Under the pieces are notes generated by a model. The model searched no databases. It had not been told where the DNA came from and saw only the letters and a list, made by a program, of their open reading frames with translations. A stretch of 64,000 nucleotides of DNA from assembly GCA_000004985.1 (NCBI GenBank), contig GG738857.1, one strand, 5' to 3'. Of the stretch, positions 14 to 57,568 are shown in pieces (position 1 is the first letter of the stretch; each line of letters starts with the position of its first letter). Position numbers and translations under genes: made by a program. Origin of the DNA: Naegleria gruberi. Lineage: Eukaryota.

Positions 14-355
14 ATGAAAAATTACGAAAAGTTGATTCGATTCATATCTGAAAGAGAAAAAGAAGGAATCAAGTTTGAGTTTATTCAATCACAAGAATGG
101 CACCATCATAGAATTGAATTATCAAAAGCAATTTTATCAATTCATGGACCAATACTTGGAATTTTCTACATATTTACCAACATTCTAATACGTGGATTGT
201 TATTACATTCATTATGTGGATTGATAATTGTAAAAACAGTTGAACAGAAGAGAGAAATAATTGGATATACTCTCGGACATTCGTTTAAATATTTGGGTTG
301 GAAATATCTTGTCTTTACATTAATAGGAATTCGAGATTCGTATAGGAAAAAGTAA
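14..355 (+). CDS. Hypothetical ORF at the window edge; possibly the 5' exon(s) of the downstream membrane-protein gene
   Basis: Open frame of 113 aa that ends at a GTAAGT (351-356) overlapping its stop codon. A 24-nt GT..AG segment (351-374) would join it in frame to ORF 413-1555. No recognisable domain. Confidence 0.3.
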   Translation: MKNYEKLIRFISEREKEGIKFEFIQSQEWHHHRIELSKAILSIHGPILGIFYIFTNILIRGLLLHSLCGLIIVKTVEQKREIIGYTLGHSFKYLGWKYLVFTLIGIRDSYRKK

Positions 356-412
356 GTTTGTTCAAATCCAACAGTTCACTTATTAAAACTGTTCAGATAT
401 TACGCAACTCAT

Positions 413-1555
413 ATGGTTGATTATTTAATATATCAACACAGGAATCATCTACCATACAGTGAAGTAGATGTTTTCTTCTGTAGTGACGTAAATGCCTATA
501 ATAGTCCAGTTTGGTTTCTGTGTGAGAGAGCTCAATTGCATATTTTCCAATTTTCAAAACAATTGTCTTGGTGGAGATGTTCATACTTGCTTTCTCTTGT
601 GATGATTCCTCATTTGATTCCTGGATTCTTTTTGAGAGGACGATTCATGAACAAACCTAAACCTAAACTTGAGGAAAGTCCAGTAACAAGAAAGGATGTG
701 AAATTTTACTTGAGGCTGGCTGTTAAGTATTTGAAAGATTTCTTGTTCCAATTGTTTGCACTTCCACATCTAGAGAGAAAAAAGGCGAGAATACTTTTCA
801 ACGAATCAGAATCGTACGGTTTCTTCTCATTCATTTTGGCAACTCTCTTCTCAACTCTTTGTGTGTTCATTGGAAGATGCATTGTAAATGAAGCATACAG
901 AAAGAGACCTATTCTTGTAAAGGAGAGAAATTATTTTCAATTGGTTCCTTATCAAATTGAAGAAATTGAAGAACACACCTTAATACTTTCCTTTCTATAT
1001 TTGGATATCATTGTTGCAGCAGTTTTTTCATTGATATTCCCAGTATCAAAGTTCGTTCTCCACAACATGACAAGTTTTCTTATTCGAAAGAAGTTTCTCA
1101 TTTTCAGAAAGTTTGAATTGGCCACTTTATACCTCTGTCCCGTTACGATCATTACAGGAACTCCAATAATGAGTCCATTCATTGGTAGTTTCTATGCAGC
1201 AGAATCCAAATATAATTATCAATATGAGAAAAATAAGAAAACTGCCGTATTAGTGAGATTACCATTTCTCCTTCTTTTATATTCAGTCATGATAATGAAT
1301 ATCATTCCACAATTATTAATCAGATACCAAGGAGTAGTTCTTTTGAGAGAAACCATTCAAGATGATTGGTTTATTTGGTTTTCCTATTTGGGTTATTATT
1401 GTGCTTTTTATACTTTCTTTGAGAGTGTTTGCTACATACCTGGAAGTTTCTGTTATCATGCTTTTAAAAAGAGTATTTGGTTGGGATGCTTTATTGTTAC
1501 AATTGGTGTAATATTGGAAGTTGCCTTCTTCTTTGGATTACAAAGATGGTTGTAA
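413..1555 (+). CDS. Multi-pass integral membrane protein of unknown family
   Basis: ORF of 380 aa with at least 6 hydrophobic helices, e.g. FFSFILATLFSTLCVFIG, LILSFLYLDIIVAAVFSLIF, VLVRLPFLLLLYSVMIMNIIP and IWLGCFIVTIGVILEVAFFFGL. The 5' exon structure is uncertain. Confidence 0.5.
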   Translation: MVDYLIYQHRNHLPYSEVDVFFCSDVNAYNSPVWFLCERAQLHIFQFSKQLSWWRCSYLLSLVMIPHLIPGFFLRGRFMNKPKPKLEESPVTRKDVKFYLRLAVKYLKDFLFQLFALPHLERKKARILFNESESYGFFSFILATLFSTLCVFIGRCIVNEAYRKRPILVKERNYFQLVPYQIEEIEEHTLILSFLYLDIIVAAVFSLIFPVSKFVLHNMTSFLIRKKFLIFRKFELATLYLCPVTIITGTPIMSPFIGSFYAAESKYNYQYEKNKKTAVLVRLPFLLLLYSVMIMNIIPQLLIRYQGVVLLRETIQDDWFIWFSYLGYYCAFYTFFESVCYIPGSFCYHAFKKSIWLGCFIVTIGVILEVAFFFGLQRWL

Positions 1556-1939: not shown

Positions 1940-4900
1940 ATGAAACACTTGTTGGATTTCGCGTATATGGGGAGGAAATTTTCACACGTTGATCACGATG
2001 GTCAATTAGTAACAAGGGAGTTTCGCAACTGTTTATTTATTCTAATGATTGCTGCTTGGATAACAATGTTGTGGTTGCCAGCACTTGCACATGGACAACA
2101 GTTAACAAAGACATTTTACATTGATTCGCTTCATGTTTCGAATACTAATTCATTCGAATGTGGAAATTCATCAAATCCATGCACTACAGTACAAGATGCT
2201 CTCAATTATTTTGCTTCGGATAGTTACATTCTAATTCAACACCAAATTTCCACCTCCAACACCTCCACACTCACCATTCAATTAACTTTCTTCATGTTAA
2301 ATGATGAACACAATTTTTGTGGTTACAATTTAAACACAACATTTAATGATAATATTGATTATGAATTGAGTTTTATTGGAAATGGGGTTTCTACATTGAC
2401 ATGTACGAAAGGGTATGGAGAGTTGAATTTCATTGAACCTCGTTTGGATATTTCAAAAGTGTTGTTTAGTCAACTTTCGTTGATTGGAGTGGTGTTTAAT
2501 TCATGTTCTTCTATTTCATTGACAGTTGTTAATTGTTTGATAACAGATGGTGGATTTATGACTTATTATCAACTCCAAGAATGTCCCAATTACGTTGCTT
2601 CGAACAGAACTATTCGAAACTTGTACCTTTCTAATATTTCCACATGGAATGGTGTTTTTTTAATTGGAAATGCAAAGAATGGGCTTATAGAGAATATTAG
2701 ATGTGATGGAGTTAGTGCCCTCTCATTCAATAATATGGAATCCATTCAACTTTCGAATGTTCAAATGCCTGGTGATGGATTATTCTCTTCTAACAATGTA
2801 AACTCTATCAGTTTCAAGAATTTCATTTCTACTGGACCTACATTCAACATCCACATTAGAGAATTTAAATCATTCACAATGGAAAGTAGTTCCTTTCAAA
2901 ACTATAAGTATTTTCAGTCAGCTGTCAACATTGACAGAGGAGAAAGTGCCAAAATTATTGATACAACAGTTCAATATTCCAGTCAATGGCTTTCTGCTAA
3001 AACTGTTAAGAAAATTGTCATTTCCAATTTAAGATTTTTGAATAATTATGTATTGGATGTTAGAACTTCCTTTTTAAGTCCAATTTTCATTTATAGTTGT
3101 GATAGTATTAAGATTGAGAATTCTTATTTTGATGGAAATTTTGGAACTAGATCTGGTCCAGTATTTATTGATGATTATTTGAATGTTGAAGTTTCGAATA
3201 ATACATTCATGAATGGTCGATCACTTGCTTCAGGTGGTGCCCTACATTTGGATAATTATCAAGCAGAATCATTATTAGAAAAGGCGACTGTTTTGATTAA
3301 GGATAATTTATTCCTTAATAACACATGTGAAAGAGTTGGTGGAGCTGTTTGCATTAATACTGTGGTCAATTGTGTTGTTACAGGAAACAAATTTATTAGA
3401 AATCAAGCAGTGGTCACTGGAGGTGCTCTTACTATTGCTGAGCATTGTAGAGATTGCCTTATTGAATCATACTTTGAAGAAAACAAGTCAATTGGAAATT
3501 ATTTAGAATTGGATTCGAATATTGTTTTTTCACAACAACTTTGGAATCGAATTATTGGAACTGGAGGTGCTCTTGCCATTTTCACAGAACCAAGATTTTC
3601 ATTTAGGATTTATGGATCTGTATTTGTGAGAAATTATGCAGGAAAAGGAGGAGCAATCCTAATGGGACTCAATTTACCAATTTCTCTCTCACAAAAAACT
3701 CCAACTTTTGTGCAAGATTGTAAATTTGAGGGAAATTTTGCAACCAAAACTGGAAATGATATTTATGCTGTGAATTTTCAAGCTCCTTTATCATATGTTA
3801 GAACTTTTATTAATCAAACAGAGGGAAATGAATATAGTTTCTCATCTAGTCCCGCCATTTTTAGAATTGTAAAGGTTAGCACTAACAAAGTTTATCCTGG
3901 TCAACCGATTGATATTGCATTCTATGTGGAGAATATATTTGGAAGGGAGATTGATATTGCATCTCAATATGTGGTTATTGATCAATTTCCTAACATGCTT
4001 CCTTTTTTGAATTATTCAAATGTTGACAGAAAGTCACTTGTCTTGACTCCTTATTCATTAACTACTGAAATGCCAATTGTTTCTCAATTTAATTTCTCAG
4101 TTTATTCAGAAGATCAAAAATTTTCAGCTAGTTTCCAATTCGAAATGTTTCCATGCCCAAAAAAGTTTATTCTACAAAAGAATGTTGCCTATTCTAATCT
4201 GGTCTATCAATGTGTGAGTGATAATAGTTTAGATCTTTCACTAGTTCTTGGACTGACTATTCCAATTGGAATTTTATTCTTAATTGTAGGAGCAATTTTG
4301 GGAGGATTGTCAGTTTATGCTATTCGATTCACACTTACACAAATTTCAATTCTCAAGACGAAACAAAGAGCTGAGAAGAGTCTTGAACAGAGAATTATAG
4401 ACAAGAAGATCATTTTCAATTCAGATCCTTCATCTGGTACCACTCACTATTCGAAATATAGTACAAATAGTGACCTTTCGGTTCCATTAATCGAAAATGG
4501 TAGCGCAGAAAAGAGTATGGCCACTCCATCCTTTGTCATTCCAATCGAAAGCATTGATATTATCAAAAAGTTAGCAGAAGGTGGATTAGGCATAATTTAT
4601 CTTGGTAAATTATGGAAGAAAATTGATGTTGCCATCAAATTACTGAAATCAAACGATCAAGATGAAGAATTTGAACAGGAAGTTTCCCTTCTAAGTTCAT
4701 TAAGACATGATAATATTGTTACATTTTATGGTATTTGTATGTCAGATGATGCCAAGTATATGATTACAGAGTTTGTTGAAAAGGGATCATTGGATAAAGC
4801 TCTGTACAAGTCAAGGATTGGAGAGGTGTCAATGTCAATTCAAAAGAAAATGTCAATATTGATAGCGACAGCAAGAGGAATTGAATATCTTCATGGATTA

Positions 4901-5557
4901 ACACCAACAGTTGTTCATCGTGATTTGGTATGTAATATTAGTTTCACAATTTCGCAATTAACATTGTTTTTTCTCTATTGGAAGAAACCTGGTAATATCC
5001 TATTGGAAGAAAAGAATCAAGCAAAGATTTGTGATTTTGGTATTTCAAGAACTGTGTCCAATGCAACTGTCCAACAAACAGCCATGACCACTAATTTAGG
5101 TACCTTAATCTATTGTCCAAATGAAGTAATTGAAGGACCTACTTTGACTAATAAGGCAAGCAAACAAACTGCCACCAAAATTGATATCTTTAGTTTCTCC
5201 GTAATTATGTGGGAAGTTTTCTTTGAAATTATTCCTTATTCACCATCGGTAGGAAAATTAACTCCACTATTTCAGTTATCAAAAGAGGAAAATGAAATGT
5301 TGAGTATGAATTCGTTTAATATTCCTTATTTTGTGGTGAAGGGAATGAGACCATTGATTCCATTCAGAACAGATGAGCAGATTAGAGAGTGGATTGAAAG
5401 ATACATGCCTGAACAGATTCACAATTCGAATATTGTTCAATTTGTAAATCGATTCTTTGCATTGGTTCAACAAGGTTGGTCAACTGATGCAACCAAGAGA
5501 CCAAATATTACAACTGTATTACAAGAACTTGAAGAACTGAATAATCTGATCAGATAG
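1940..5557 (+). CDS. Receptor-like serine/threonine (TKL-type) protein kinase with a signal peptide, an ectodomain of parallel beta-helix (Pmp-like FxxN / GGA[ILV]) repeats, one transmembrane helix and a cytoplasmic kinase domain. It has one in-frame 57-nt intron at 4928-4984.
   Basis: N-terminal hydrophobic signal LFILMIAAWITMLWLPALAHG. Repeated motifs FMNGRSLASGGALHLDN, FLNNTCERVGGAVCINT, FIRNQAVVTGGALTIAE and FVRNYAGKGGAILMG. TM segment LVLGLTIPIGILFLIVGAILGGLSVYAI. Kinase motifs GGLGIIYLGK, VAIKLL, HRDL|KPGNILL (split by the intron GTATGT...GGAAG) and CDFGISR. Confidence 0.8.
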   Translation: MKHLLDFAYMGRKFSHVDHDGQLVTREFRNCLFILMIAAWITMLWLPALAHGQQLTKTFYIDSLHVSNTNSFECGNSSNPCTTVQDALNYFASDSYILIQHQISTSNTSTLTIQLTFFMLNDEHNFCGYNLNTTFNDNIDYELSFIGNGVSTLTCTKGYGELNFIEPRLDISKVLFSQLSLIGVVFNSCSSISLTVVNCLITDGGFMTYYQLQECPNYVASNRTIRNLYLSNISTWNGVFLIGNAKNGLIENIRCDGVSALSFNNMESIQLSNVQMPGDGLFSSNNVNSISFKNFISTGPTFNIHIREFKSFTMESSSFQNYKYFQSAVNIDRGESAKIIDTTVQYSSQWLSAKTVKKIVISNLRFLNNYVLDVRTSFLSPIFIYSCDSIKIENSYFDGNFGTRSGPVFIDDYLNVEVSNNTFMNGRSLASGGALHLDNYQAESLLEKATVLIKDNLFLNNTCERVGGAVCINTVVNCVVTGNKFIRNQAVVTGGALTIAEHCRDCLIESYFEENKSIGNYLELDSNIVFSQQLWNRIIGTGGALAIFTEPRFSFRIYGSVFVRNYAGKGGAILMGLNLPISLSQKTPTFVQDCKFEGNFATKTGNDIYAVNFQAPLSYVRTFINQTEGNEYSFSSSPAIFRIVKVSTNKVYPGQPIDIAFYVENIFGREIDIASQYVVIDQFPNMLPFLNYSNVDRKSLVLTPYSLTTEMPIVSQFNFSVYSEDQKFSASFQFEMFPCPKKFILQKNVAYSNLVYQCVSDNSLDLSLVLGLTIPIGILFLIVGAILGGLSVYAIRFTLTQISILKTKQRAEKSLEQRIIDKKIIFNSDPSSGTTHYSKYSTNSDLSVPLIENGSAEKSMATPSFVIPIESIDIIKKLAEGGLGIIYLGKLWKKIDVAIKLLKSNDQDEEFEQEVSLLSSLRHDNIVTFYGICMSDDAKYMITEFVEKGSLDKALYKSRIGEVSMSIQKKMSILIATARGIEYLHGLTPTVVHRDLVCNISFTISQLTLFFLYWKKPGNILLEEKNQAKICDFGISRTVSNATVQQTAMTTNLGTLIYCPNEVIEGPTLTNKASKQTATKIDIFSFSVIMWEVFFEIIPYSPSVGKLTPLFQLSKEENEMLSMNSFNIPYFVVKGMRPLIPFRTDEQIREWIERYMPEQIHNSNIVQFVNRFFALVQQGWSTDATKRPNITTVLQELEELNNLIR

Positions 5558-5758
5558 TTTGCTTACAATGCTAAAATAGTCTAGTTTCCAAAAAAAAACT
5601 CATCTTTAAATCACCTTTTAAATAGAAAATCCATGAATGAAATCCAAATCAAGAGTTTATCCATTTAGAAAACAAGCTAATAGCACCTGCATTTCTATTC
5701 GAAATCATTTAAATACTCAACGAAATCTTTCCTATTCGAAACAACAACAAAAAACAAA

Positions 5759-6142
5759 ATGAACAAAATCGTTTCTGTCTGCATTCTTGCTCTCCTTGTC
5801 TTATCTGCTTGCTTGGTCAACTGTCAATACAGCAACAATTATGGTACCAATTATGGTTCATATGGAGGAGCTGGTTCTAACTATGGTGTCACTGGTGGAA
5901 ATTACAATCAATATGCTCAAAATACTCAATCCTATTTGAATCAAATTAATGCAGTCAACTCAAGTCCTTACTCAAGTTATGGATCTTCATATGTTGGCCC
6001 AACAAATTATGGTACTAACTATGGAAGTGCTTACTCAATGCCATTCTATGGTGGTTATGGAGGTTATGGTGTTCCTTATTATGGTGGTTATGGTGGTTAT
6101 GGTGGATATGGTGGTTGTGTTGGTGGTGTTAGATGGTGTTAA
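5759..6142 (+). CDS. Small secreted glycine/tyrosine-rich structural protein (cell wall, spore coat or cuticle-like)
   Basis: Signal peptide MNKIVSVCILALLVLSACLVNC, followed by GYGG/NYG repeats. Ends in GYGGYGGYGGCVGGVRWC. Confidence 0.6.
   Translation: MNKIVSVCILALLVLSACLVNCQYSNNYGTNYGSYGGAGSNYGVTGGNYNQYAQNTQSYLNQINAVNSSPYSSYGSSYVGPTNYGTNYGSAYSMPFYGGYGGYGVPYYGGYGGYGGYGGCVGGVRWC
6048..6130 (+). repeat. Tandem GGTGGTTATGG-type (GYGG-coding) microsatellite-like repeat inside the CDS
   Basis: Reiterated ggtggttatgg / ggaggttatgg / ggtggatatgg units are visible in the nucleotide sequence. Confidence 0.6.
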
Positions 6143-6263
6143 ATGATTGAAAGTAATATAGAGTTTGAGAATTTGTGAAGTTTTTGAGTTTTTCAAATAA
6201 AATCTTGAAACTATTTTAGTGAAATGTATCATTGTTTACTCTTAGTTGACTAGTTCTTAAAAA

Positions 6264-7249
6264 TTAAATCATGAATAGCATAAATAACATGCAGAAAATC
6301 AATCCAATTGATGAAATGGTGATAGAAACACTTCCAGAAATTGCAATTAAATTAGTAATAAATGATCCATAATTAAATCTATCCCCATATAATTTCACAG
6401 CACAAGAAGAGCAATTATTTCTATTTTTGGACAACCAGAAAAATAAATCAGAACCATCACCCAATAAGACGTGTATCTTCTTTGATAGAATCATTGCCCA
6501 TGCATCTTTATATTCATCCAAACGAATAATTGTTGCCTTTGGACAATTAGCTGTCACGTAGGCATCAAAAGTTGAAGTGTTGGCTACTGCAATAATTAAT
6601 CCAGCTTGATTTAAATCCTTTTCAGATGTTACAATATATGTGGTATTCTCCAATTCAGTTCTTAAAATTCCAGAATAACTATATCCATAAGCACCTTTCC
6701 AAAATTAGTAATTCCATAAATATTTTTAAAACAAAACCTACATTGAAAATGAGCATTGGCACCTCTTGAATCACTATAATGAGTTGATGCTACAGCAACA
6801 TCACAAACTCCCAAATTAACTGCATTTTGCAATGCTGGAAAATATCCCAACTGATTAATGTCAATCTCTGTAACATTAGCTGTCAATTTCAATGCTGGAT
6901 ATTGTGAAACAATTTCCTCCACAATCATTTGAGAGAATTTAGTGTAGATGACTGGCCAAGGATCCAGAGCTCCTTTATCATAACAAAATACCAAATAATT
7001 TCTTGAAATGTTAAATGATGAAGGATAGGAAAGAGATGACGAGGATGAACAAGTTGGCACACCGAGGAGGAAAGTAGTTTCGATTACATTGATCCACTCG
7101 GTTTTGGCAACGACTTTGGAAGCTGCTGTGTCTATAACTCGTTGGAAATTCTGTGTAATTTGATAGGGACTGCTTTGTCCACATAGAATGGTTAATAGAA
7201 GAAAGCAGACGAAAGTGATGGTCATGGATCCAATATTATTTCGATGCAT
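6264..7249 (-). CDS. Secreted protein with a C-terminal hydrophobic tail (GPI-anchor-like). Two exons joined by a 47-nt intron at 6695-6741.
   Basis: ATG at 7249 precedes the signal peptide MHRNNIGSMTITFVCFLLLTILCGQSS (the ORF is open back to 7351). A minus-strand intron GTAGGT...AAAG joins ...AHFQC to AYGYSYSGILRTELENTTYIV. The C-terminus SITISSIGLIFCMLFMLFMI is hydrophobic. Confidence 0.5.
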
Positions 7250-9079
7250 TTTGCAAGTGTTATTGGTGGTGGGTGGTCTTTTCGTTTTTTTTTGATTAAA
7301 CAATCGAATACTCGAGCGAAACCGCAACGTGTTGAAAAGGTGATTGGCCAAATACAGAAATTAACAGATGACAGAAAGTTGGTACCACCAAAATTTAATG
7401 AGCCTGAAACAGGAAATGAAGTTTGTTAATGGAAAGCAAAAATGACACATTTTGAAGTTTCGAATAGTTTACAGTTAATTCTGAAAAGATTTGGTTATGT
7501 AAGTTATTTGTGCGCCGTATTTAGTTTCAATTGTGGAAAGTGTAAGCAATTTGTATTAATAAGCATAATTCTGTAATTGAGGGAACTATTATTGTGAGTT
7601 GTTTGATCATTTCTAATAAAAAATTTCAGCAACAGGTTCTTTGAATAGTCTAATATTTCCAGGACAGCATTTCAAACTATGTTACAAGTTAGATCATAAG
7701 CATCTCTAATTGATTGTGAAGATTTAGAAGGTTGTTCAGAGTGTGAAGATAATGTGAAATCAATTAATCAAAATAAGGGTTGACTTTTCTATAGTGGAAG
7801 AGAGTTAACATTCGGTGAATATTCTTCAGATCATCATTTGAACATTCAAAAAATCAAAAACAGCAAATTCACAATACAGATCTGTTGAATAGGTACAAGA
7901 ATGGTTATCCCATCGTTATTAAACTCCTTTTTCATGTTTTACTTGAGCTACAATCTTTTGCAATATTTGGCTCATCATGAATTTTTCTGCTCATCACGAA
8001 TATTTTATTTATTTTTTGTGATGAGAGAAAATAAGGAAATTGCTTGCTCCGATGTTTTGCAATCTTGTGTTCTCCTCAGGTCCAGTTAAAGAAGTATCAT
8101 CTTTTGAGGAAAGATGTCTAATGAAGTTAATTTTTGTGTAAGCTTGTTGTTTGTTAAGAACATCATGCAGGCCTATTAGTGAAAGTGTTAAATTCATTCA
8201 CTTCACTGTTATCCACTTGTTTAATTCATAACAATATTCTTACAGTAGATAATGATTCCTAGACAGTTTTGTACTCATTACCCAATTTTTCCTTAATTCC
8301 ATACGTTTATCTGCGCGGCTATTAAATTGATTGAATGACAATGTAGTGAAACAATGATTCTGGTCAATGCAACCAGAGGAAAACACACACCCTTTAAAAC
8401 TTGTCAAATCAACTATTGCCTAGAGTTTACAACAAGTCAAAAACCGGAAATTTATAATATGGAAAGAGTCGCATGTTTGGCATAATCTCTCGTTTTGTTA
8501 CTGCTCCTTTGTAGCTGTAAATTATGATAATTGCTAAACCGCACAACAATTAGAGGTGAAATGCATGATGATGAAAATTTTCCATCGCACTCAATAACTA
8601 GGAGAGCACAACAAGAAAAAACATTTTCCTTCGGGAAGGACCATCACTCAGAATCTTAAAAAAAAATCCCTAAACCCATCCACATTCATCATTTTGTCTC
8701 TTTTGAGGGATATTGTATCAATAGTTCCATCATTCATTTATTTATTATCAACCCAACTCAACTATTAAAGTAATAGTATATTAAACTTGTAGAATAGATT
8801 GTACAAAAGGTATGTATTTGAGTGGTGGAGAGTGTATATTTAATGAGTCTATTCATGATTTGATCATTTTTGTAATGGTTGATGATTTGTTCGTTGTATG
8901 CACTTGTCGTAATACTTGTATGGAACCTATGGATTGATAATATTGTCATGTTTTGTATGTGAAATTGTATTCATATTGAATGTTGTCCATCCACAAACAC
9001 CACAATATTCACTGCATAACACAATATATTAATCTATAAATTGCAATACTATTAATAATAATAATTGCAATTTAAATAG

Positions 9080-11293
9080 ATGAGTCTCCCAAATAACAAC
9101 ACTATTAGTAGCAATTGGCAATTACCTCTTGCTTGGAAGCAACAATTTGCTCTTCCATTCGTTCAAGCTTTGGAAGCACAAGAAAAGGAAAGTCCAGACA
9201 GTGATATTTTGAATAATCCATCACTCACCGAACAACAAAAACAACAACAAATTTCTGCTCGTAACATTGATAGAAAGCAACAAAAGAGACTGAAAGCAAT
9301 CTTTAATAGATTTGCTTCATCGAAGGATACTTTTGGTGAACCAATAATGACACCAGAAGATTTTGTCAAATCAATCACACAAAGAAACATTCCTTTCACT
9401 CAAGAAGAAGTGCAACAACAACAAAAGCAAACAATGACCTCAAGTAACTTGGATTTATTGTTTAAAGCAGCAGATTCTGGTATGTCTGGTAAAATTACCT
9501 TCCCAGAATACTTGTTCCTCTTCAAAATGCTCACAACACCTGAAAGTGAATTCCATCTCTTATTTAAAATGTTTGATTTGAACAAGGATGGTGCTATCAG
9601 TAAGGATGAATTCAAGAAGGCAATGAAATTGAGTAATCAAAGAGGTATTGACTTTGATTTCGATTGTGACTTAATGCACAGATTCTTTGGTCGTGATGGT
9701 ACTGGTTCTCTGAGTTTTAATCAATTCTCACAATTCATGAAATTAATGAATGAAGAACTCAGAAGACAAGAATTCCAAAAACTTGATGCCACAGGAAAGG
9801 GTTTCATTTCCGGTTCTCAATTTGCCACTCTCATTACTCAATATTCAATTAATCTTCCACAAAGAGTTAAGGAAAATATTGGTAAAATCCCAGAATCAAC
9901 AAAGATTTCATATGCCGAATTTGATGCTTACAATAGAGTTATTAGTAATTTGAACTCTATTGCTCAATCCATTAGAGGTTTGGGTAACAGAGAAGGTGGT
10001 ATGATCACCAAGGAATCATTTTCCACTGCTGCTAGACGTGTGACAGGTATTGTCCTCAGCCCAATGGAAATTGATATTATTTTCAACATGTTTGCCACTA
10101 AGCCAGAAGAAGGAGTTTTATATAAGCAAGATTATGAAGAATTTATTCGTGTTATGGATGAAAACAATAATAGAAGACAACACATTTTGGATAGTTGGAG
10201 TAGAGATGAAGTGACACCAGATGGTATGACAGAAATGACTTTCGGAGAAAGATTTTTGAACGGAGTTGTTAAAATTGCCACAAAGACCTTGTATGGTGGT
10301 ATTTCAGGAGCTATTGGTGCTTTTGCTGTCTTCCCAATTGATATGGTCAAGACACGTATGCAAAATCAAAGAAAGCTTCTTGGTAATGCTGGAACTCCTG
10401 CTCCAAATCAAATCATTTATAAGAACAGTATTGATTGTTTTAGACAAATCTATCACTATGAAGGTATTAAGGGTTTCTATAGAGGTTTAATTCCACAATT
10501 GATTGGTGTCTCACCAGAAAAGGCCATCAAGTTGGCAACCAATGATACATTGCGTGATTTGTTCGGAAAGGAAGGTGATGAAATCTATTTCCCATTGGAA
10601 GTTTTGGCTGGTTGTGGTGCTGGTGCTTCTCAAGTTGTTTTCACTAACCCAATTGAAATTGTCAAGATTAGATTGCAAGTTCAAGGAGAATTGGCCAGAA
10701 CTGAAGGAATTGCTCCAAAAGGTGCCATTCAAATCTGTAAAGAATTAGGTTTAAAGGGTTTATATAAGGGTGCTTCTGCCTGTTTTGCTCGTGATATCCC
10801 ATTCTCTGGTATTTACTTCCCACTTTATGCCTTCTTGAAGGAAGAATTCAGAAAGGAAGGTGAAACTGCAACAAGTGGTGGCAATTTGTTTATTGCTGGT
10901 TCAATTGCTGGTGGTGTTTCTGCTGCTTCAGTAACTCCTTTCGATGTCATTAAGACCAGATTACAAGTTGAAGCTAGAGCTGGTCAAACTCAATATAGAG
11001 GTATTGCTCACTGTGCCAAGACAATCATGAAGGAAGAAGGTCCAACAGCTTTCTTCAAGGGTACTGTCCCAAGAGTTTTAAGAAGCAGTCCACAATTTGG
11101 TGTGACATTGCTTGCTTATGAAGCTCTCCATCGTTTTGTCAATGAAAAACATTCTAAACAAGAAGAAAAGGAACATCATAAGAGTTTGCCAGCTTCTGTT
11201 CCTGTTGACGAACAAGACTTGGAAAGTTTGAGACAACTCTTCTACATGAGAACACAAGGTATTTCTTCAATTCTTGGAAATGAAAAGAAGTAA
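9080..11293 (+). CDS. Calcium-binding mitochondrial carrier of the Aralar (aspartate/glutamate carrier) type, single exon
   Basis: The N-terminal half carries EF-hand loops (DLNKDGAISKDEF, DGTGSLSFNQF, DATGKGFISGSQF). The C-terminal half has three mitochondrial-carrier repeats with PIDMVKTRMQ, PIEIVKIRLQ and PFDVIKTRLQ signatures. Confidence 0.85.
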   Translation: MSLPNNNTISSNWQLPLAWKQQFALPFVQALEAQEKESPDSDILNNPSLTEQQKQQQISARNIDRKQQKRLKAIFNRFASSKDTFGEPIMTPEDFVKSITQRNIPFTQEEVQQQQKQTMTSSNLDLLFKAADSGMSGKITFPEYLFLFKMLTTPESEFHLLFKMFDLNKDGAISKDEFKKAMKLSNQRGIDFDFDCDLMHRFFGRDGTGSLSFNQFSQFMKLMNEELRRQEFQKLDATGKGFISGSQFATLITQYSINLPQRVKENIGKIPESTKISYAEFDAYNRVISNLNSIAQSIRGLGNREGGMITKESFSTAARRVTGIVLSPMEIDIIFNMFATKPEEGVLYKQDYEEFIRVMDENNNRRQHILDSWSRDEVTPDGMTEMTFGERFLNGVVKIATKTLYGGISGAIGAFAVFPIDMVKTRMQNQRKLLGNAGTPAPNQIIYKNSIDCFRQIYHYEGIKGFYRGLIPQLIGVSPEKAIKLATNDTLRDLFGKEGDEIYFPLEVLAGCGAGASQVVFTNPIEIVKIRLQVQGELARTEGIAPKGAIQICKELGLKGLYKGASACFARDIPFSGIYFPLYAFLKEEFRKEGETATSGGNLFIAGSIAGGVSAASVTPFDVIKTRLQVEARAGQTQYRGIAHCAKTIMKEEGPTAFFKGTVPRVLRSSPQFGVTLLAYEALHRFVNEKHSKQEEKEHHKSLPASVPVDEQDLESLRQLFYMRTQGISSILGNEKK

Positions 11294-11363: not shown

Positions 11364-12930
11364 TTACTTTTTTAAGAGAAATGCTGGTCTGGAAGGTTGT
11401 GAAAATCTTTCAAGACGATCCTTTAGTGAAGGTCTGGCATAATCTTGACATCTCTTCTTGAAGTCTTCCAATATCTTATTGGAAATCTCAATAACTTGAT
11501 TTCTATCACTCTCCTCAGTAATATCGTTTAAAATGCTGACTTGATTTTGTTGGAAATTCTCCACGAGTTGAGCAACAGCTTGATCGAAATCATCCATAGT
11601 TTTAAATTGCTTTGGACATGGATTTGATCTTCTGTGAATATCATAATAACTATTTTCCAAATTATAGTACAAACAAAGGACATTCTTATATGTTACAGAT
11701 ACTTGTTGATTATTAATTGGTCCATTCAATAATTCTTTTCCAATTGCAATTATCAATTCCTTCAAGGTTAATTGTTCAATCCAATTATGAGGAATTCCTT
11801 CAACTCCATAATAACATCCCATCAATTGACCAGCAATAGCTGCAACTGTATCAGAATCATCTCCCAAACGAGTTACCTTTTTAATTCCTTCACCAAACGA
11901 AGAAGTGTGGTAAAAATTCCACAATGCACTCTCTAAAGCTTTTGCAGAATATCCCGAGTTGGAAATTTCATCTTCATTCTTTGATTTAAAGTTGGTAATG
12001 ACATCAAGAACTTCAGCTCTCAATGGATACATTTCCCAATAATTAGAAGGCAATCCTTTTGGTACAAATGGAGTGGACGATAACAATTCTTCCTTTGATG
12101 CATTTTGTAAACAGCCAATCAACAAAGCAGCATAATATCTATTAGTATCAATTGCAATTGGTGAAGGATGTGTAGTCAAGGATGAAACACCACTCTCAGT
12201 AATTACTCTGTGAAGTAATCTTTCTTCAACAAATAGTTCAGATAATTCAATATTTGAAAATCTCTTCTTCCAATTCAAATATATACCATAAAAGTACAAT
12301 GGAATAGTTGCCAATCTCATTAAGGCACCATTTCCAGAAGCATTATCAGTCCATTCAGAAGCACTGCAAAAAGCAGCCTTATTCTTTTCATTTTTCAACA
12401 AGTGAACTATAGTTGTCTTTCCAATATCAAAACAATGTCCACTAGCTGACAAATGTCCATTATTATACCAATTCAAGAATTTGTCTTGCATATCTCTGCC
12501 ATCAATTGCACTATGAGGTATCATATCATTCACCCACATTGCATTATCCTTAGCATTATCCCACGGATAATTAACAATCAATTCATTTCCATTCGAAAGT
12601 ATTTCCTTGAATGTTCCCAATAAACTTTCGCCCTGAATAAGAGACATGGTTGTATCATCAGTAAACATGCCTTTCATTAATCTGAATTTTCCTTCTCCCA
12701 CCAAATCATCCCTTTTTTATTACAATTAAATATATTTAATATTTGATGATTTAAATATTATTTGATTGGAAGAATTTGATCGTCATGAATGAACAAATTT
12801 AATGTTCAGAATATTACAAAGGTACACACATACTTTAAATCGGAATCTTTAATTCCATGTCTAGGAATAAATTCAAATGTTGTTCCGTAAGCATCACCAG
12901 TGGCCATGCCTAATAAACATCCAAGAAATT
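11364..12930 (-). CDS. ADP-ribosylglycohydrolase family protein (ARH-like). Two exons with a 109-nt intron at 12715-12823.
   Basis: Exon 1 (12930-12824) encodes MESKFLGCLLGMATGDAYGTTFEF..., the family's N-terminal GDAxG motif. Exon 2 has the DDTTMSL and GNGALMRLA motifs. The intron runs GTATGT...AAAAAAG. Confidence 0.75.
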
Positions 12931-14074: not shown

Positions 14075-15415
14075 TTAAGGATCACCACTTGTAACGGCAC
14101 ATCCAAAAAATTCATGTTTTCCAATCAATTGCTTTGGAATTCCCCATTCCCATAAATATTGATCTCCAGATCTTAATTCTTGCTCTCCAGAATAAATGAC
14201 AAGTAAATTTGATTGAGATGAATAGTCAACTGGATCATCATTTACATCCTCATCTATTATTTCTATATCAGAATCAAAATCCATAGAACTAAACAAGCTA
14301 AAAAAGGTAAACTTGTCATCGAATGGTGTTGAAAATTCTTCAATTTTCAAAGTATTTGGAACTTTTCCTCTTTCAGTCATTCTAGGTTGGTGAGGAACTG
14401 AATGGAATTTCATTTTGGCAGCATTGCAATAGGTACGATTTCCTTCTTGTCTCTCCAATCCACCCATTTCTTTAATTTGATTTTCTGTTATGTAAAGAAC
14501 TGGTTGTGAACTAGATCTCTTTGGTGCACAATAGGACCCATTACCTCCTCCATTAGGATCACAAAAGAAATAGAGCATTCCATTATCTTTAGGAAGAAGT
14601 GATCCAGTTCTATCATAATAAGACAAGTGTTTGATGTTGATTTGACAACCAAACATCCATTTCTTATCAAAAAGTGTTGGCCATTGATAGTTTTTTGGTA
14701 AATCAGGCCATCCACCAATTTTTGATTCTCCAACTGCAATTAAATCGTCTCCATTTCCAATAGAGTATCCAGAAGTTACTGATTCTAATGGAACTTTCCA
14801 ATAAAGTGATTCAGGTGTTACAACTTCCTTTTCTTCTTCGGTTTCTTCTTCTTCTTCTTCATACTCCTCATCTATATCATTTTTAATTATCTTAAACTTT
14901 GGATGTAACTTTTCACAATACCCTTGAGTAATTGACTCGACAGAAAAGGTCAAGTTTTGATAATCCTTAGCATTTTCACTAAATGCCTTTAAAATATTGA
15001 CATGTCCTTTTTGTCTGCATTCGTGAACTGTCGAATACTTTCCATAGGCAATTTTACAGATGAAATATTCTTTCCAGAATGCGTTTTCACTTGGAAAAGT
15101 TTCCAATAAACATTCTGGTACATCAATTGGCAGAAAGTTCAATCTATTCTTGACAACATCCTTCCAATTTACTTGATTATCAATCATAGACTTCCATCCC
15201 TTGCATACACGTCTCATCTTTATCAATTCACATCCCTCATTAAATATGAACAATTCACCAACCAATACTTCTGGTGGAATATCTTGGAGGAGTTGTCTTG
15301 TTGATTCTTTCATCTTTTTGTTTGGATTTTCAGTACTACCAACCAGTGTGCTGTTATTGACAGATCGTTTGGACATTTTTTTTGTGGTGTTATCAGTTTT
15401 GGCGCAGAAAATCAA
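14075..15415 (-). CDS. F-box-like domain protein with an acidic linker; the C-terminal region may be DUF1963-like (tentative)
   Basis: LLQDIPPEVLVGELFIFNEGCELIKMRRVCKGWKSMI resembles an F-box. There is an EEYEEEEEETEEEKE acidic tract. The C-terminal GWPDLP...LYFFCDPNGG block resembles DUF1963. Confidence 0.55.
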   Translation of the reverse strand: MIFCAKTDNTTKKMSKRSVNNSTLVGSTENPNKKMKESTRQLLQDIPPEVLVGELFIFNEGCELIKMRRVCKGWKSMIDNQVNWKDVVKNRLNFLPIDVPECLLETFPSENAFWKEYFICKIAYGKYSTVHECRQKGHVNILKAFSENAKDYQNLTFSVESITQGYCEKLHPKFKIIKNDIDEEYEEEEEETEEEKEVVTPESLYWKVPLESVTSGYSIGNGDDLIAVGESKIGGWPDLPKNYQWPTLFDKKWMFGCQINIKHLSYYDRTGSLLPKDNGMLYFFCDPNGGGNGSYCAPKRSSSQPVLYITENQIKEMGGLERQEGNRTYCNAAKMKFHSVPHQPRMTERGKVPNTLKIEEFSTPFDDKFTFFSLFSSMDFDSDIEIIDEDVNDDPVDYSSQSNLLVIYSGEQELRSGDQYLWEWGIPKQLIGKHEFFGCAVTSGDP

Positions 15416-16193: not shown

Positions 16194-16267
16194 TACCGAC
16201 AATGGGGCTCGAACCCACGACCCCAGGATTAGAAGTCCTGTGCTCTATCCAACTGAGCTATGACGGC
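16194..16267 (-). tRNA. tRNA-Arg (anticodon UCU), copy 1
   Basis: Minus-strand sequence GCCGTCATAGCTCAGTTGGATAGAGCACAGGACTTCTAATCCTGGGGTCGTGGGTTCGAGCCCCATTGTCGGTA. It has a D-arm GCTC/GAGC, the anticodon loop CTTCTAA with U33 and A37, and the T-loop GGTTCGAGCC. It is followed immediately by a T6 run, an RNA polymerase III terminator. The acceptor stem has one T-T mismatch. Confidence 0.88.
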
Positions 16268-16504: not shown

Positions 16505-19290
16505 TTAGTTTATCAATGATTGTTTCTTTTGGAGAAATGCAAGCTCAGAAATATTCAATAAATAACTCCTGTAAATAAATTTCCCATAATATTGCTCACA
16601 ACCACTCAGACCAAGGATGCCAAAATTTGGGGGGAACTTGTATTTACCATCCTTAAGATTTGCACTAAGAGGTTTGTTTGTAATAATTATAGCAAGAGAA
16701 GTATTTGGGGTTCCACCTATCAGTTCAAGTTTTGGTTCATTGAAATGATTTTGATAAATTTTCTTAACAGCAGTCATTGTTAAACTGTTTGAATCTGATG
16801 TGAAACTCTTGTCTTGCCATAAGATAGTCCAATTGTTATTATCAATATTGCAATCAGCAAATCTATGAAAAAATGAAGAGGTAAAATTATTTTGAACCAA
16901 AGTGTTCTGAGGAATCTCATATTTTGATCTAGTTACATCTGTTAAAATAGTAACAACTTTGTTTGGAAATGTGTTTAAATTAATAATCCTATACCCCATT
17001 TCTTTTTGAAACATAATTCCCTTAAATCTATCCTTGATATGCATTTGAGATACTCCTAAAATAATAAAGCAATAATTTTTTACAATTTCAAAATGTGCAT
17101 TGAAGATTTTAAAATCTCTGGAACAGGTGGTTTTTTTTTTAAATGCTGCTTTTTCAAGTGATTTAAATAATTTTTCAAAGGACGTCTTAATCTTAGGATC
17201 ATCAAATATGATAATATTTAAACAACTCAAGATCATTGGAAGAGACATTGTTATCAATCCATTAGCAATTCTTATATATCCATTATCTTCTAATTGTCTT
17301 AATTTCCTTGTATCAATTGTATCTATAATTTCAGAATTAACAGGTGTTTCTGTTAAAGTGTGGGCCAAAATTAATTTAGCTATTTCATTTTCAAAAACAA
17401 AGTTCACACCATAACTAGAAAAATTGTTCTTGGCAATGTTGTAGGCATTTTGTATTCTATCTTCAACGTTCAATGTTAATTTTGTGTCCTTCAAATTATC
17501 CAAAAACCATTCAATCATTCTAGGATGCTTGTTAATAAAAGTAAGAGCTTTCCATAACGGTGCTGCATATTTTAAAGAAGGAACATTTCTGCAAACAATT
17601 TCTAATTCGTCATCATCAGAAAATTGGTAAGGAGTAAAATAATTACTATGGAAACCTGATTCAAAAACTCTCCTTTCAAAGAAAGCCATATCTAATCCAG
17701 CAAATAATGGAAAAAGTTTAACAGAAGATGGTTTTTGGTTGTTGAGTATTACAAAATTACATATCATAGTGATAATTTCTGAAAAATTCATGTGTGGAAA
17801 CTCCTTAACTTTGGTATATTCATCAATAGCCAAATAAACAGCAACAGGTGAATCTTTTGGTTTGTTGTTAACTTCCTTCCAGTGCTGTACTATTGTCAAT
17901 ATTAACTCCTCAAAGGTAGGATTGATCTTGGCTAATTCAGATGCAATAGATGTAATGGTGTTTGTATCAAAACTTGGGAAATTTAAATATGAAAACAATA
18001 TTCTATATAAAAATCCCATTTTTAAATCATCACCAGCTCCTAAACTCATACCATTACCAAAGGAAATTCTTATTTCCAATGAATTATCTTTGTAATTTTT
18101 TTCTTGGGTGGTTAATTTGAAAATTTCTTGTAATGTCCTTGATTTTCCTAAAATATAATAAAATAATAAAATGATTATGCTAAAGTATAACACTACATAC
18201 CTGTTCCAGAAGCGTAGGCAAGGTAAGGAATAAAAATATTTTGTTTGTCTGTTTCGGTTTCTAATTTATGAAACGTTTCAGAAATTCCCTTGACAAGTTC
18301 ATCATTATATTTGAATGGCATGTCGATAATTGATCGAACTAATCTATAAGCATTTAGCCTGGCTCCATGTTTTGCAATAAAACTTGCCAATAAACTACGA
18401 TTTGAAAAATCAACATTGTCACAAGTAATTATGTACTGTTGTTTCCATCTTTCAATCACTTTCTCATTGTTGTCAGATATTTGAATGCCACTTAGTTTTA
18501 GGGATAACAAGTAGGAACTTTCGTTTTTAGTTAAATATTCTAAACTTTCGCTAATTGCTTGACTGATTTTCTCAGTTTGCCACAAATGAAAGAGTCTTGT
18601 TGTGAGTAGTTGGTATACCCAATTAACAACGGCCTCTAAAGTGGTTTGGGAAATGCTTTTGTAATCGTTGTTGTTTCTTACTTGTGTAATAGCATAATGC
18701 TTGTCCTTATCTTGGATATAAGTAACAATATTACTAAGAGCAATACCATCAAACCCAACATCATACAATTGCTTTACCTTTTCAACAATCAAACCAGCTC
18801 CACCTTTTCTTTCATCAGTGCACAACAAGGAGCAAACTTGTTCTTTTGTCCATTGTTTAAATTTTGTAGTATCCAATATTTGTTTGTTTTCAGTAGTAAC
18901 CAACGTTACTGGTTCAGAATAAATATTCTCGGAAAGAAAAGTGGTAGTAGAATAATTTTTGCAAGAATTTGTGACGGCAAAAACATGCTTCGTTCTATAA
19001 TGATTGTTTTTGTTTTTTGTTGGATGAATTTGATTTTGCATCTTTAATCTGGTTGAGGTTGAATAATTCTTTGTATTACTAGTATCATTATGCAAATAGA
19101 TGGTGCAACTAATACCGACAGAGGTTTGCCTCAACTTTTGTTGATTAATTGCGGTTTTGGGCAATAGTAAAAGCTTTCGAGGGAGACAGGAGGTGGATAT
19201 TTTTTTTTTGACTCGGAAAAAATTCAACAACTTAGGATGATTATTGTTGATTTTCAGAGTGGTTTCTCTTGGTGAGTACTTTTCCATCAT
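16505..19290 (-). CDS. Large SAM-domain-containing protein of unknown function. Two exons with a 53-nt intron at 18148-18200.
   Basis: ORFs 18193-19290 and 16505-18193 join through a minus-strand intron GTATGTAGTG...TTTTAG, reading ...AYASGT|GKSRTLQEIF. A SAM-like segment WTKEQVCSLLCTDERKGGAGLIVEKVKQLYDVGFDGIAL is present. Confidence 0.6.
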
Positions 19291-19799: not shown

Positions 19800-21293
19800 A
19801 TGATTACACCAAAATTTGAATGCATTCAAAATGATGAATTTGTGATAGTGACTATTTACATTCCTCATGTAAAGATGACGGAAATGGAATATAGTATTGA
19901 TAATAATTCTATTGAAGATGAAGATTATGCTCATACTAAATCATTGTTTAGATTTTATGTTAAACCATACTTTTTAAGATTACATTTTGCACAAGCATTA
20001 CAAGATGAAGGAAGTAATGATTTTTCAAAGTATGATCCCGATAATGAAAAGTTAATTGTTCATTTACCTAAAAAGAATAGAGGAGAATATTTTGAAAATC
20101 TTAATATGATTACATGGTTATTAGGATCGAATAGAGAAACACAAGGAACTACTTCATTATTTAATAATTTGACAAGTAATAATATCATTGCTGAACCAAC
20201 TGCACGTGATGAGAAGAAAGCTCCACTGATTGAAGTTGTCGAAAGTAATAATGATGATGAAAATAATGAAATGGATGATGAAGAAGGTGGTGGAATGTAT
20301 GATGACAGTGGTGTTTCTGAATGGGAACAACAATTACCAGGTGATAAGAGTGCGTCTGAAGTGATGAAGGAAGAATTAGGTATTGCCAAAGTTTATTATG
20401 GATTCAATAAGCAATTTACTGATATTTTCACAAAATTCTCAGAGGAATATATTAAAGAAATTATTGATACACCTTATCCAGAAGTTTTACCACAAGAGGA
20501 AAGAAGAAAGATTAGAGAAATGGAAGAAGTTGATGCATTTGATCCTGAACATTATCTTCTCGATATGATGAATAAGGATAGAGATATCAAGATGATTTTT
20601 GATTATAAACCAGCTTGGACAGTTAATCCACAACCAGTTCAATGGACAGAGAAGGAGCAAAAGATGCTCTCTGAATTACCAAAGAAGGAATATTTAATTT
20701 CAAACGAGTTATCTGTCTATTGTGGTCTAGTTGATTTGCTCTGCACATTTGCTTACAATTATAGAAGTTTTATGGGAGAAAATAACGTTGAAAGCTCTTG
20801 GACTATTTGCAAGATGAGTTCACAATTATCCTGGTTGGAAGAATTGACCAATCTGAAAGATACTTTACAAATTTTCATCAGTCGTTCATGTTGCTTTGCA
20901 TTATACAGAAACTTTGATTTGGCCCTCCAATGTATCAAAGATGTTGTCGATTTACTCATTCTAGGAAAGGAATATGTATTGAGAGCTCTTTTAGAAATTA
21001 AGGATATTTTAGCTCACACTTTGGACAAGTATTTACTCAACAAGATTTATGTTGATAATTATTGTATATGGATCCAAGGTGTCTCCAACCAATCTCTTTC
21101 ACAATTAGGTCAAGCCATTCTCAAAGTTGTCAATGAAGATTTCCTTGGCCAAAGAAGTGAATTCCTAATTTCCAATGCAGTTTCACTCAAAAAACTCGAA
21201 GATTATGCTCAAGATTCTCTCGAAGAAGTTGGTGGAAATGTCGATGATCTCGTAATGACTGAACAAGATAAAGAAAGACCACTGGCTCTTTAA
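19800..21293 (+). CDS. SHQ1: SHQ1 homologue (box H/ACA snoRNP assembly factor)
   Basis: The N-terminal CS domain MITPKFECIQNDEFVIVTIYIPHVKM...FRFYVKPYFLRLHF...LIVHLPKKNRGEYFENLNMITWLL aligns with SHQ1 (human [26 protein letters not shown]...FKFYAKPYFLRLTLPG...[24 protein letters not shown]). Confidence 0.8.
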   Translation: MITPKFECIQNDEFVIVTIYIPHVKMTEMEYSIDNNSIEDEDYAHTKSLFRFYVKPYFLRLHFAQALQDEGSNDFSKYDPDNEKLIVHLPKKNRGEYFENLNMITWLLGSNRETQGTTSLFNNLTSNNIIAEPTARDEKKAPLIEVVESNNDDENNEMDDEEGGGMYDDSGVSEWEQQLPGDKSASEVMKEELGIAKVYYGFNKQFTDIFTKFSEEYIKEIIDTPYPEVLPQEERRKIREMEEVDAFDPEHYLLDMMNKDRDIKMIFDYKPAWTVNPQPVQWTEKEQKMLSELPKKEYLISNELSVYCGLVDLLCTFAYNYRSFMGENNVESSWTICKMSSQLSWLEELTNLKDTLQIFISRSCCFALYRNFDLALQCIKDVVDLLILGKEYVLRALLEIKDILAHTLDKYLLNKIYVDNYCIWIQGVSNQSLSQLGQAILKVVNEDFLGQRSEFLISNAVSLKKLEDYAQDSLEEVGGNVDDLVMTEQDKERPLAL

Positions 21294-46530: not shown

Positions 46531-47600
46531 ATGAAGAAACTTCTTAGCTTTACCTCACAAAAGGTTGCTCCATCTTGTTTAGGAACCTTTTCTCACCAAC
46601 CTCTTCTCTCCTTCTCTCTCGCAACTACTACAACACAATCAAATCTTCTCACCGAATGTACCAACAACAATCAAAAGAGATTCGGTTCTAAACACATTTA
46701 TATTAGAGGTAAACTTCACTATCAAAAGAAGTTAGAACAAGAGAAAAAAGTTTCCAAACTCTCTGATAAGTCCAAGGCTGCTTATCGTTCAAATGCTGAA
46801 CGTAGTCAAAGCTTTGCCTGGACTCCTTCAACACCAACTCAAGAATTATATCAAAAGAATATGTTAGAATTCAAGAATTCTCGTAAGAGACCTTCTGCTC
46901 AACAATTCCTTGATATGCTCGCCACCGTTCAAAGTGCCGACGACTTTAATTATGCTATGCGTTATTGGAGAACTTTGTGTTTGAGAAGGATAAAATTCAC
47001 TGCTCAAAGCACTGAAGCCATCCTTGAAGCTATGGAAAAGTATGATGAAAATCACCCACAAACATCTATTGAACGTAAGTATTTTGTATGGGAAATTTTC
47101 TAAATATCATCTATGGATTTATTACCATGATATACGGAATAGTTATCAAAAACTCTGGTTCATCCAAGCTTGCTCAACCACTCACAAAGAAATTATTTTT
47201 CGGATTTATAACTAAACTTGTTAATGAACACAATGATACTGAAACTGCTATTGCATTGTTCAATGAATTCAAGGCAGGTCATTTGAACTTGGTTCCTACT
47301 ACTGAAGATTATGAATCCATTTATACTTTGTTGAAGGAAAAGGAAGTTTCTAAAGAAAAGGTTGTTGAATTGTTTGATAAACAACCAAAATCAGTCAGTA
47401 TTTCATGCCCAGCACCAATTTTGACCACAGTTTTTGATGCTTTCCAAGAAGTTGAAAGTAGTTTGGATGCTGCTGTCAAGAAACGAGTTCTCAATTATTT
47501 ACAAGTTCAATCACTGGGTAAGGAAGATACAATCTTTGAAGCTACCAAGCAAAAGTTATCTGAAATGACTTCCGTTCCTGCTGAAGCAAAGGAAGAGTAA
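46531..47600 (+). CDS. Hypothetical protein. Two exons with a 68-nt intron at 47075-47142.
   Basis: ORF 46531-47103 ends ...TSIE at a GTAAGT donor. The acceptor GGAATAG restores the frame of ORF 47088-47600 (LIKNSGSSKLAQPL...). The S/T/K-rich N-terminus resembles a mitochondrial presequence, but the evidence is weak. Confidence 0.5.
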
Positions 47601-57494: not shown

Positions 57495-57568
57495 TACCGA
57501 CAATGGGGCTCGAACCCACGACCCCAGGATTAGAAGTCCTGTGCTCTATCCAACTGAGCTATGACGGC
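57495..57568 (-). tRNA. tRNA-Arg (anticodon UCU), copy 2
   Basis: The 74-nt sequence is identical to copy 1 and is followed by T6 (plus strand cagataccgacaatggggctcgaaccc...). The flanking sequences are unrelated to those of copy 1. Confidence 0.88.

Follow-up and report, generated by a model that had tools for sequence, protein, structure and literature searches.

A two-exon gene of Naegleria gruberi for a receptor-like TKL kinase with a predicted Pmp-type beta-helix ectodomain

We describe here a gene for a receptor-like protein kinase found in a 64,000-nucleotide stretch of contig GG738857.1 of Naegleria gruberi (assembly GCA_000004985.1), the whole of which is referred to below as the window. 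The gene lies at positions 1940 to 5557 on the plus strand, consists of two exons, and encodes a hydrophobic leader, an ectodomain of about 710 amino acids bearing repeats of the type found in chlamydial polymorphic membrane proteins (Pmps), a single transmembrane helix, and a TKL-type kinase domain. It is colinear over its full length, by alignment, with the Naegleria homologues designated P0004, P0153 and P0026 and with the pair P0003 and P0155. The features of the gene are as follows.

1940..5557, plus strand: whole gene, start to stop codon (stop 5555-5557), two exons, from the open reading frame (ORF) listing
1940..4927, plus strand: exon 1, amino acids 1-996
2027..2092, plus strand: N-terminal hydrophobic leader, amino acids 30-51, ending LPALAHG before QQ, from hydropathy
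2099..2449, plus strand: N-terminal cap region, amino acids 54-170, with one helix and the conserved cysteine pair C74 and C81, from the AlphaFold2 (AF2) model and alignment
2450..3841, plus strand: predicted right-handed parallel beta-helix of about 15 coils, amino acids ~171-634
3128..3838, plus strand: Pmp-type coils within the helix, amino acids 397-633, 7-8 FxxN...GGA[ILV]-like units, repeating every ~27 amino acids
3857..4225, plus strand: predicted immunoglobulin (Ig)-like beta-sandwich stalk, amino acids ~640-762, with conserved VYPGQ and membrane-proximal PCP...C
4235..4315, plus strand: single transmembrane helix, amino acids 766-792, from hydropathy and charge bias
4349..4417, plus strand: juxtamembrane motif ILKTKQRAEKSLEQRIIDKKIIF, conserved in P0004, P0153, P0026, P0154 and P0155
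4559..5524, plus strand: TKL-type protein kinase domain, spliced amino acids 874-1176, interrupted by the intron, from PF07714/PF00069 and relatives in the PDB
4928..4984, plus strand: intron, phase 0, 57 nucleotides, with GTATGT donor, ATTAAC branch-like motif, T-rich tract and AAG acceptor
4985..5557, plus strand: exon 2, spliced amino acids 997-1186 plus stop

Gene structure, kinase domain and membrane topology

Read without splicing, the frame at 1940..5557 (+) is open for 1205 amino acids, and removal of the intron leaves 1186; as had been pointed out in the original prediction, which was made from the sequence alone, ORF calling without splicing adds 19 residues to the catalytic loop. 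Positions 4916-4996 read CAT CGT GAT TTG, then GTATGT...ATTAAC...TTGTTTTTTCTCTATTGGAAG, then AAA CCT GGT AAT, and the 57-nucleotide segment at 4928-4984, in frame and free of stop codons, falls exactly between the HRDL and KPGN codons. Its identification as an intron is well supported, chiefly through comparison with two homologues from N. lovaniensis, in which the position originally proposed is conserved. The orthologue of N. lovaniensis (locus L001) has a 69-nucleotide intron, GTAAGT...AAAAG, with stop codons inside it at the same HRDL and KPGN boundary, and the deposited protein from that locus, P0155, has a contiguous HRDLKPGN. The N. lovaniensis paralogue C9374_000528 (locus L003) has a 64-nucleotide intron, GTAAGT...CATAG, at this boundary too, while a metagenomic homologue (contig L002) joins HRDL to KPGN with no intron. 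Splicing also improves the match of the kinase to Pfam. The unspliced protein scored 136.7 bits for PF07714 and 127.5 bits for PF00069, in a match broken into two stretches, compared with 154 and 152 bits for the spliced protein, in one stretch covering profile positions 3-259 of 263, for a gain of 17-25 bits. Candidate introns of 41-68 nucleotides with GTA[AT]GT donors, required to join long open frames, are present elsewhere in the window, and the size and donor of the 57-nucleotide intron are thus typical.

An alternative explanation is that the 57 nucleotides are retained, yielding a protein with a 19-residue insert in the catalytic loop, or that the gene is a pseudogene in decay; either is very improbable. 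Retention would fit an in-frame, stop-free segment, and AAG is a less usual acceptor than the YAG ends of the other candidate introns in the window, although the L001 orthologue ends similarly in AAAAG. Because 38% of all 57-nucleotide windows in the window are stop-free by chance, the stop-free property alone is no proof of an intron; the proof is comparative. Two N. lovaniensis homologues have an intron at exactly this codon boundary, with internal stops in one case, HRDLKPGN is contiguous in deposited proteins, and splicing joins the Pfam match, all of which argues against retention. A frame open for 1205 codons in a genome of 33% G+C speaks against decay. A second candidate in-frame intron, at 4737-4799, was ruled out, as the homologues have matching residues throughout that stretch of the alignment. 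A stop-free, in-frame intron within a catalytic loop is one that ORF-based gene callers would read through silently.

The kinase domain retains VAIK (K900), E913, HRDLKPGN at 993-1000 (with N1000) and DFG at 1013-1015, all intact, which bears out the original description of an intact Ser/Thr-type kinase with HRDLKPGN and DFG and adds K900, E913 and N1000 to it. The best relatives of solved structure in the PDB were CTR1 (4.6e-30), TNNI3K, Pto, TAK1, RIPK2, BRI1, SYMRK, FERONIA, CERK1 and IRAK1; since these closest relatives are all of the TKL group, the kinase is assigned to TKL. It is likely to be catalytically competent, judging from its motifs, with Ser/Thr and possibly dual specificity.

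The Kyte-Doolittle mean over 19 residues exceeded 1.8 in only two segments, at amino acids 30-51 and 763-799. The second holds the transmembrane helix and is the one internal hydrophobic segment, in agreement with the single transmembrane helix originally placed between ectodomain and kinase. The first, which ends in ALAHG, is probably a signal peptide; its n-region would be long if M1 is used as the start. The homologue P0003 begins directly with a classical hydrophobic leader. Around the transmembrane helix there was one Lys or Arg before and five after, NxS/T sequons were about twice as dense outside (1.55 per 100 amino acids in the ectodomain vs 0.76), and 17 Cys residues occurred in the ectodomain vs three in the cytoplasmic part. 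By these sequence rules of charge bias, sequon density and Cys distribution, the protein is predicted to have a type I orientation, N-terminus out and C-terminus in.

Repeats and predicted fold of the ectodomain

The ectodomain contains five GGA[ILV] motifs, at amino acids 432, 467, 494, 542 and 570. Shuffling the ectodomain 20,000 times never produced five, and the mean was 0.023. When paired motifs were sought with the pattern FxxN-x(3-10)-GGA[ILV], three strict pairs were found, at amino acids 458, 485 and 562, all with a spacer of 8-9 residues: FLNNTCERVGGAV, FIRNQAVVTGGAL and FVRNYAGKGGAI. These are flanked by four to five degenerate units such as FDGN...SGPVF, FEGN...TGNDIY and FINQ..., and 30 residues separate the GGAL at 542 from the FxxN that precedes it. 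Spacing from one FxxN to the next is regular, at 26-35 and mostly 27 amino acids, and the F, N and GGA columns are invariant in the family alignment. The claim in the original prediction of at least five FxxN...GGA units therefore stands for the five GGA[ILV] motifs but only for three strict pairs, and the first of its examples, FMNG, is FxN. About 15 coils were counted from the strand pattern of the AF2 model and the Pmp signature is found in the last seven to eight only, so that the description of the ectodomain as built from such repeats is accurate for amino acids ~397-633 and not for the first half of the coils. The N-terminal half of the helix (amino acids ~171-396) is predicted as beta-helix with no Pfam match. 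Indeed, the Pfam scan gave no match for the N-terminal 313 amino acids or for the last 148 amino acids of the ectodomain, stalk included.

Both checks that had been suggested for this part of the protein favoured a beta-helix, and no outcome named in the original prediction as refuting it was encountered. The Chlam_PMP family of Pfam (PF02415) matched amino acids 366-614, scanned alone, with 28.9 bits against a cut-off of 20.6, and homologues scored 36.8-48.1 bits on Chlam_PMP at full length; structure prediction yielded a right-handed beta-helix, and this is the fold predicted for the ectodomain, which had no sequence-level relative in the PDB. In models of chlamydial Pmps, the FxxN and GGA residues face the core of the helix and stack its coils (PMC11166332). 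The motifs accordingly mark a fold subtype rather than a binding site; they are structural and do not identify a ligand.

The chlamydial Pmps, which are type Va autotransporters, share with the present protein the FxxN and GGA[ILV] motifs at a spacing of one coil, a parallel beta-helix, and matches to PF02415 and TIGR01376. They have dozens of GGA motifs in place of the five seen here. Unlike them, the Naegleria protein had no Pfam match to the Pmp middle domain or to the C-terminal beta-barrel translocator, is anchored by an alpha-helical transmembrane segment followed by a eukaryotic kinase, and is encoded with a spliceosomal intron. Lacking the middle domain and beta-barrel, it is not a Pmp autotransporter, and the type of repeat alone is shared. 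As precedents for the ectodomain, the nearest among eukaryotes are the Pmp-like proteins of trichomonads (such as TVAG_249300 and TVAG_140850), which are likewise type I proteins with an FxxN/GGA ectodomain in place of the bacterial autotransporter module, although these have short cytoplasmic tails with endocytic motifs, no kinase, and large expanded families. Pmp-like transmembrane proteins of trichomonads increase adherence (PMC6701047). With pectin-lyase-like carbohydrate-active enzymes (GH28, GH87, GH110, PL6 and others) the likeness is in predicted fold only. TMEM2/CEMIP2 is a type II hyaluronidase with no kinase and had no detected sequence similarity. Fibrocystin is another animal cell-surface beta-helix protein, with PbH1 repeats and no kinase domain.

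Relatives of the gene and its neighbours in the window

An exhaustive phmmer search with the ectodomain against 1.84 billion cluster representatives (E up to 1e-3) returned 280 matches, of which only four, P0003, P0004, P0022 and P0026, aligned over the whole ectodomain. All four are from Naegleria: C9374_013524 (XP_044553933) and C9374_000528 (XP_044552356) of N. lovaniensis, FDP41_008148 (XP_044558157) of N. fowleri, and NAEGRDRAFT_74710 (XP_002670288) of N. gruberi. E-values of 3.6e-40 and 3.0e-38 were obtained over amino acids 4-711 of the ectodomain, in which the best match was 28% identical, and E-values for the kinase against homologues were 1e-110 to 1e-129. Identity to the relatives was 20-28% for the ectodomain, compared with 46-48% for the kinase and juxtamembrane region; this far greater conservation of the kinase is the usual pattern for receptors. 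The complete layout of ectodomain, transmembrane helix and kinase is present in P0004, P0026 and P0153. The Naegleria homologues share a colinear arrangement of cap, beta-helix with Pmp coils, Ig-like stalk with VYPGQ, PCP...C, transmembrane helix, a KExAEKxxEQKIxDK juxtamembrane motif and TKL kinase, and both N. lovaniensis genes have the intron between HRDL and KPGN; the present gene differs from them in that its intron happens to be in frame and stop-free.

P0003 is an ectodomain half, and the kinase half is the adjacent model C9374_013523, separated from it by a change of frame of one nucleotide. At this locus (L001 positions 3489-7375; N. lovaniensis PYSW02000006.1) annotation divides the orthologue between C9374_013524 for the ectodomain and C9374_013523 for the transmembrane helix plus kinase, and the frame change, near L001 5880-5900, reflects a mistake of assembly within a run of A or else a genuine frameshift. 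The splitting of the orthologue into two current gene models is a lesson for annotation. The closest homologue of the kinase (48%) is encoded on the environmental contig L002 (MLSBCLC_10164188 of Joint Genome Institute metagenome 3300002220), also in an ectodomain, transmembrane helix and kinase layout. Two overlapping gene calls on this contig suggest another frame change or intron near 1233-1288.

Among the best 150 ectodomain matches, a kinase was found only in the Naegleria family, apart from a negligible 19-bit kinase match in P0113. Other ectodomain matches were generic Pmp-repeat proteins from metagenomes ("outer membrane repeat proteins"), bacteria or archaea, and a green alga, and a word-indexed homologue search with the ectodomain found just two generic Pmp-repeat proteins. 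Homologues over the full length came only from Naegleria and one metagenome contig. No paralogue of the kinase gene was detected within the window, where two 446-amino-acid ORFs, at 11364-12704 and 14075-15415, were considered and are not paralogues. The possibility raised by the original prediction that this is an expanded receptor family was not borne out: on these searches the family is small and not expanded, with four clusters at 50% identity across three genomes among all the representatives searched. There was no synteny with the N. lovaniensis locus beyond the gene itself. By sequence, the gene is a divergent orthologue or paralogue belonging to an existing but unstudied family, whose deposited members carry automatic names such as "Right handed beta helix domain-containing protein" and "non-specific serine/threonine protein kinase". 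The architecture had been called unusual, and it is uncommon; it is not unique, as it is already present, uncharacterised, in three Naegleria proteomes. In the literature on Chlam_PMP with kinases, on Naegleria with Pmps, and on beta-helices with transmembrane kinases, we found no description of it, and a 2023 survey of transmembrane kinases across kingdoms mentions neither Naegleria nor beta-helix sensors (PMC10463195).

The surrounding window is gene-dense and AT-rich, at 32-36% G+C throughout. Upstream of the kinase gene, the ORFs 14..355 and 413..1555 (window 14-1555, plus strand) probably belong to a single gene, which encodes a multi-pass membrane protein and has a 45-nucleotide intron at 352-396 (GTAAGT...TTCAG). 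Downstream by 200 nucleotides, a 127-amino-acid ORF at 5759-6142 (+) has a hydrophobic leader followed by low-complexity sequence rich in Gly, Tyr, Asn and Ser and the ending GGCVGGVRWC, and it may encode a secreted or cyst-wall-type protein. An ORF of 737 amino acids at 9080-11293 (+), with EF-hand matches around amino acids 153-183 and three mitochondrial-carrier repeats (best stretch amino acids 602-690), presumably resembles calcium-regulated carriers of the Aralar/SCaMC type. The SHQ1 gene at 19800-21293 is 68% identical to SHQ1 of N. fowleri, 64% to an ENA protein, 56% to that of Willaertia magna and 37% to that of Acrasis kona, which places the window in Naegleria or a very close vahlkampfiid. 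No protein of the window had an exact counterpart in a collection of 15 billion proteins. Two tRNA-Arg(TCT) genes, at 16194-16267 (-) and 57495-57568 (-), are 41 kilobases apart on one strand. Candidate introns of 41-68 nucleotides with GTA[AT]GT...YAG ends were identified at 18148-18200 (-), 30151-30191 (-), 39093-39134 (-), 51171-51231 (-), 35084-35125 (+) and 47075-47142 (+), and merge, for instance, the ORFs 16505-18193 with 18193-19290 and 28586-30142 with 30151-30786. Five long ORFs (475-1441 amino acids) went unmatched in Pfam (E up to 1e-5), at 59484-63809 (+), 47808-49457 (+), 32109-33683 (-), 22508-23935 (+) and 16505-18193 (-), and may encode lineage-specific proteins.

Possible function and alternative explanations

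The explanation that we favor, with somewhat better than even confidence, is that this is an intact two-exon heterolobosean gene for a type I single-pass receptor-like kinase which senses an extended ligand through its beta-helix and signals through its TKL kinase. The protein would then act as a sensor at the cell surface or in the phagosome, with glycans as its most likely target. The long rigid beta-helix would face the medium and bind a ligand of extended shape. Polysaccharides or surfaces rich in glycans, for instance those of bacterial prey, cyst-wall material or the substratum, are the most likely candidates, because most beta-helix proteins bind ligands of this kind. Multivalent binding could cluster the receptors, and the clustered cytoplasmic kinases might trans-autophosphorylate and feed into pathways of feeding, adhesion or differentiation.

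Several observations weigh against this explanation or weaken parts of it. The class of ligand and activation by clustering are analogies and not results of the analysis. In-frame ATGs at amino acids 1, 10, 36 and 43 make the start codon ambiguous, and the signal peptide is putative, as it was recognised from hydropathy only. Chlam_PMP was not reported in the Pfam scan of the full-length protein, which returned kinase families only, and TIGR01376 (POMP_repeat) passed marginally on the ectodomain, at 16.8 bits vs a cut-off of 15. The predicted structures were built on alignments of 5-6 sequences, with a mean predicted local distance difference test score (pLDDT) of 75-79. In the kinase itself two motifs deviate from the consensus: the G-loop, AEGGLG, has Ala for its first Gly, which is also the case in most members of the family, and PNE stands in place of APE, with the Glu kept.

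It is possible, though distinctly less probable, that the same protein resides in an endosomal, lysosomal or phagosomal membrane with its beta-helix in the lumen and its kinase in the cytoplasm, where it would report on ingested material and control maturation of the phagosome. Naegleria is a phagotroph and the stalk of the present protein is Ig/IPT-like, both of which fit such a location. By analogy it also has a precedent in VSK3 of Dictyostelium, a TKL that crosses the membrane once, has a TIG/IPT domain in the lumen, is located on late endosomes and lysosomes, and is required for phagosomes to fuse with lysosomes (PMC2064856; PMC1420674); however, the topology fits the plasma membrane equally. 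A mainly adhesive protein, in which the kinase domain is a pseudokinase or non-catalytic scaffold, is improbable. Pmp-type proteins of Chlamydia and Trichomonas do act as adhesins, and the replaced G-loop Gly and degenerate APE of this copy could be read in the same way, but K900, E913, HRD, N1000 and DFG are intact, and no other part of the protein is as conserved in the family as the kinase. Slightly less probable still is an enzyme of the pectin-lyase-like superfamily, i.e. a glycoside hydrolase, lyase or epimerase, tethered to a kinase. Invariant columns across five homologues are nearly all structural (F, N, G, A, C), the only charged invariants being R168, D170 and D505, with no conserved cluster of catalytic Asp or Glu; there was no Pfam or NCBIfam match to a glycoside hydrolase or polysaccharide lyase, NosD falling below threshold; and likeness to the beta-helix fold does not imply catalysis.

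In function, the nearest precedents are receptor TKLs of Amoebozoa. The ectodomains of Entamoeba transmembrane kinases have Cys-rich repeats. The GDT and DRK families of Dictyostelium (including VSK3) and the transmembrane kinases of Entamoeba are, like the present protein, amoebal single-pass receptors that combine a lineage-specific ectodomain with a TKL-like kinase, and they have roles in the switch between growth and differentiation and in phagocytosis. They differ in belonging to Amoebozoa whereas Naegleria belongs to Discoba, and in their ectodomains. The receptor-like TKLs of Dictyostelium comprise the GDT and DRK families with gdt, drk and TIG ectodomains (PMC1420674). PATMK of Entamoeba is a functional analogue among amoebal transmembrane kinases (PMC2211552). 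The plant proteins CTR1, BRI1, FERONIA, SYMRK and CERK1 and the animal proteins TNNI3K, TAK1 and RIPK2, as the closest solved kinases (E 5e-30 to 1e-23), have the HRDLKxxN loop in common with it; here likeness is in the kinase domain only (~35% identity with CTR1 across N-lobe and catalytic core), and the leucine-rich repeat, malectin and LysM ectodomains of plant receptor-like kinases are unrelated to the beta-helix ectodomain.

Receptor kinases of protists have repeatedly been built from a conserved TKL kinase and a lineage-specific sensor, and the present gene is a clear case of this from Heterolobosea. Its sensor is a beta-helix of Pmp type, and outside this family such modules are known from adhesins of bacteria and surface proteins of trichomonads. 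A broader and rather doubtful possibility is that these genes constitute a system of receptor kinases for the recognition of glycans or molecular patterns in Discoba, a supergroup from which no receptor kinase has been characterised. It would have been born by fusion of a bacterial-type Pmp/beta-helix adhesin, possibly horizontally acquired, to a TKL kinase, and Naegleria, including the pathogen N. fowleri, would use it to recognise bacterial prey, the surfaces of a host or the wall of its own cyst. The nearest Pmp-repeat matches outside the family are a mixture of metagenomic proteins and a green alga and speak neither for nor against a horizontal origin. If the ligand of the favored receptor-like kinase is a glycan or the surface of prey or host, the family would provide an entry point to environmental sensing in Naegleria, the genus of the brain-eating N. 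fowleri.

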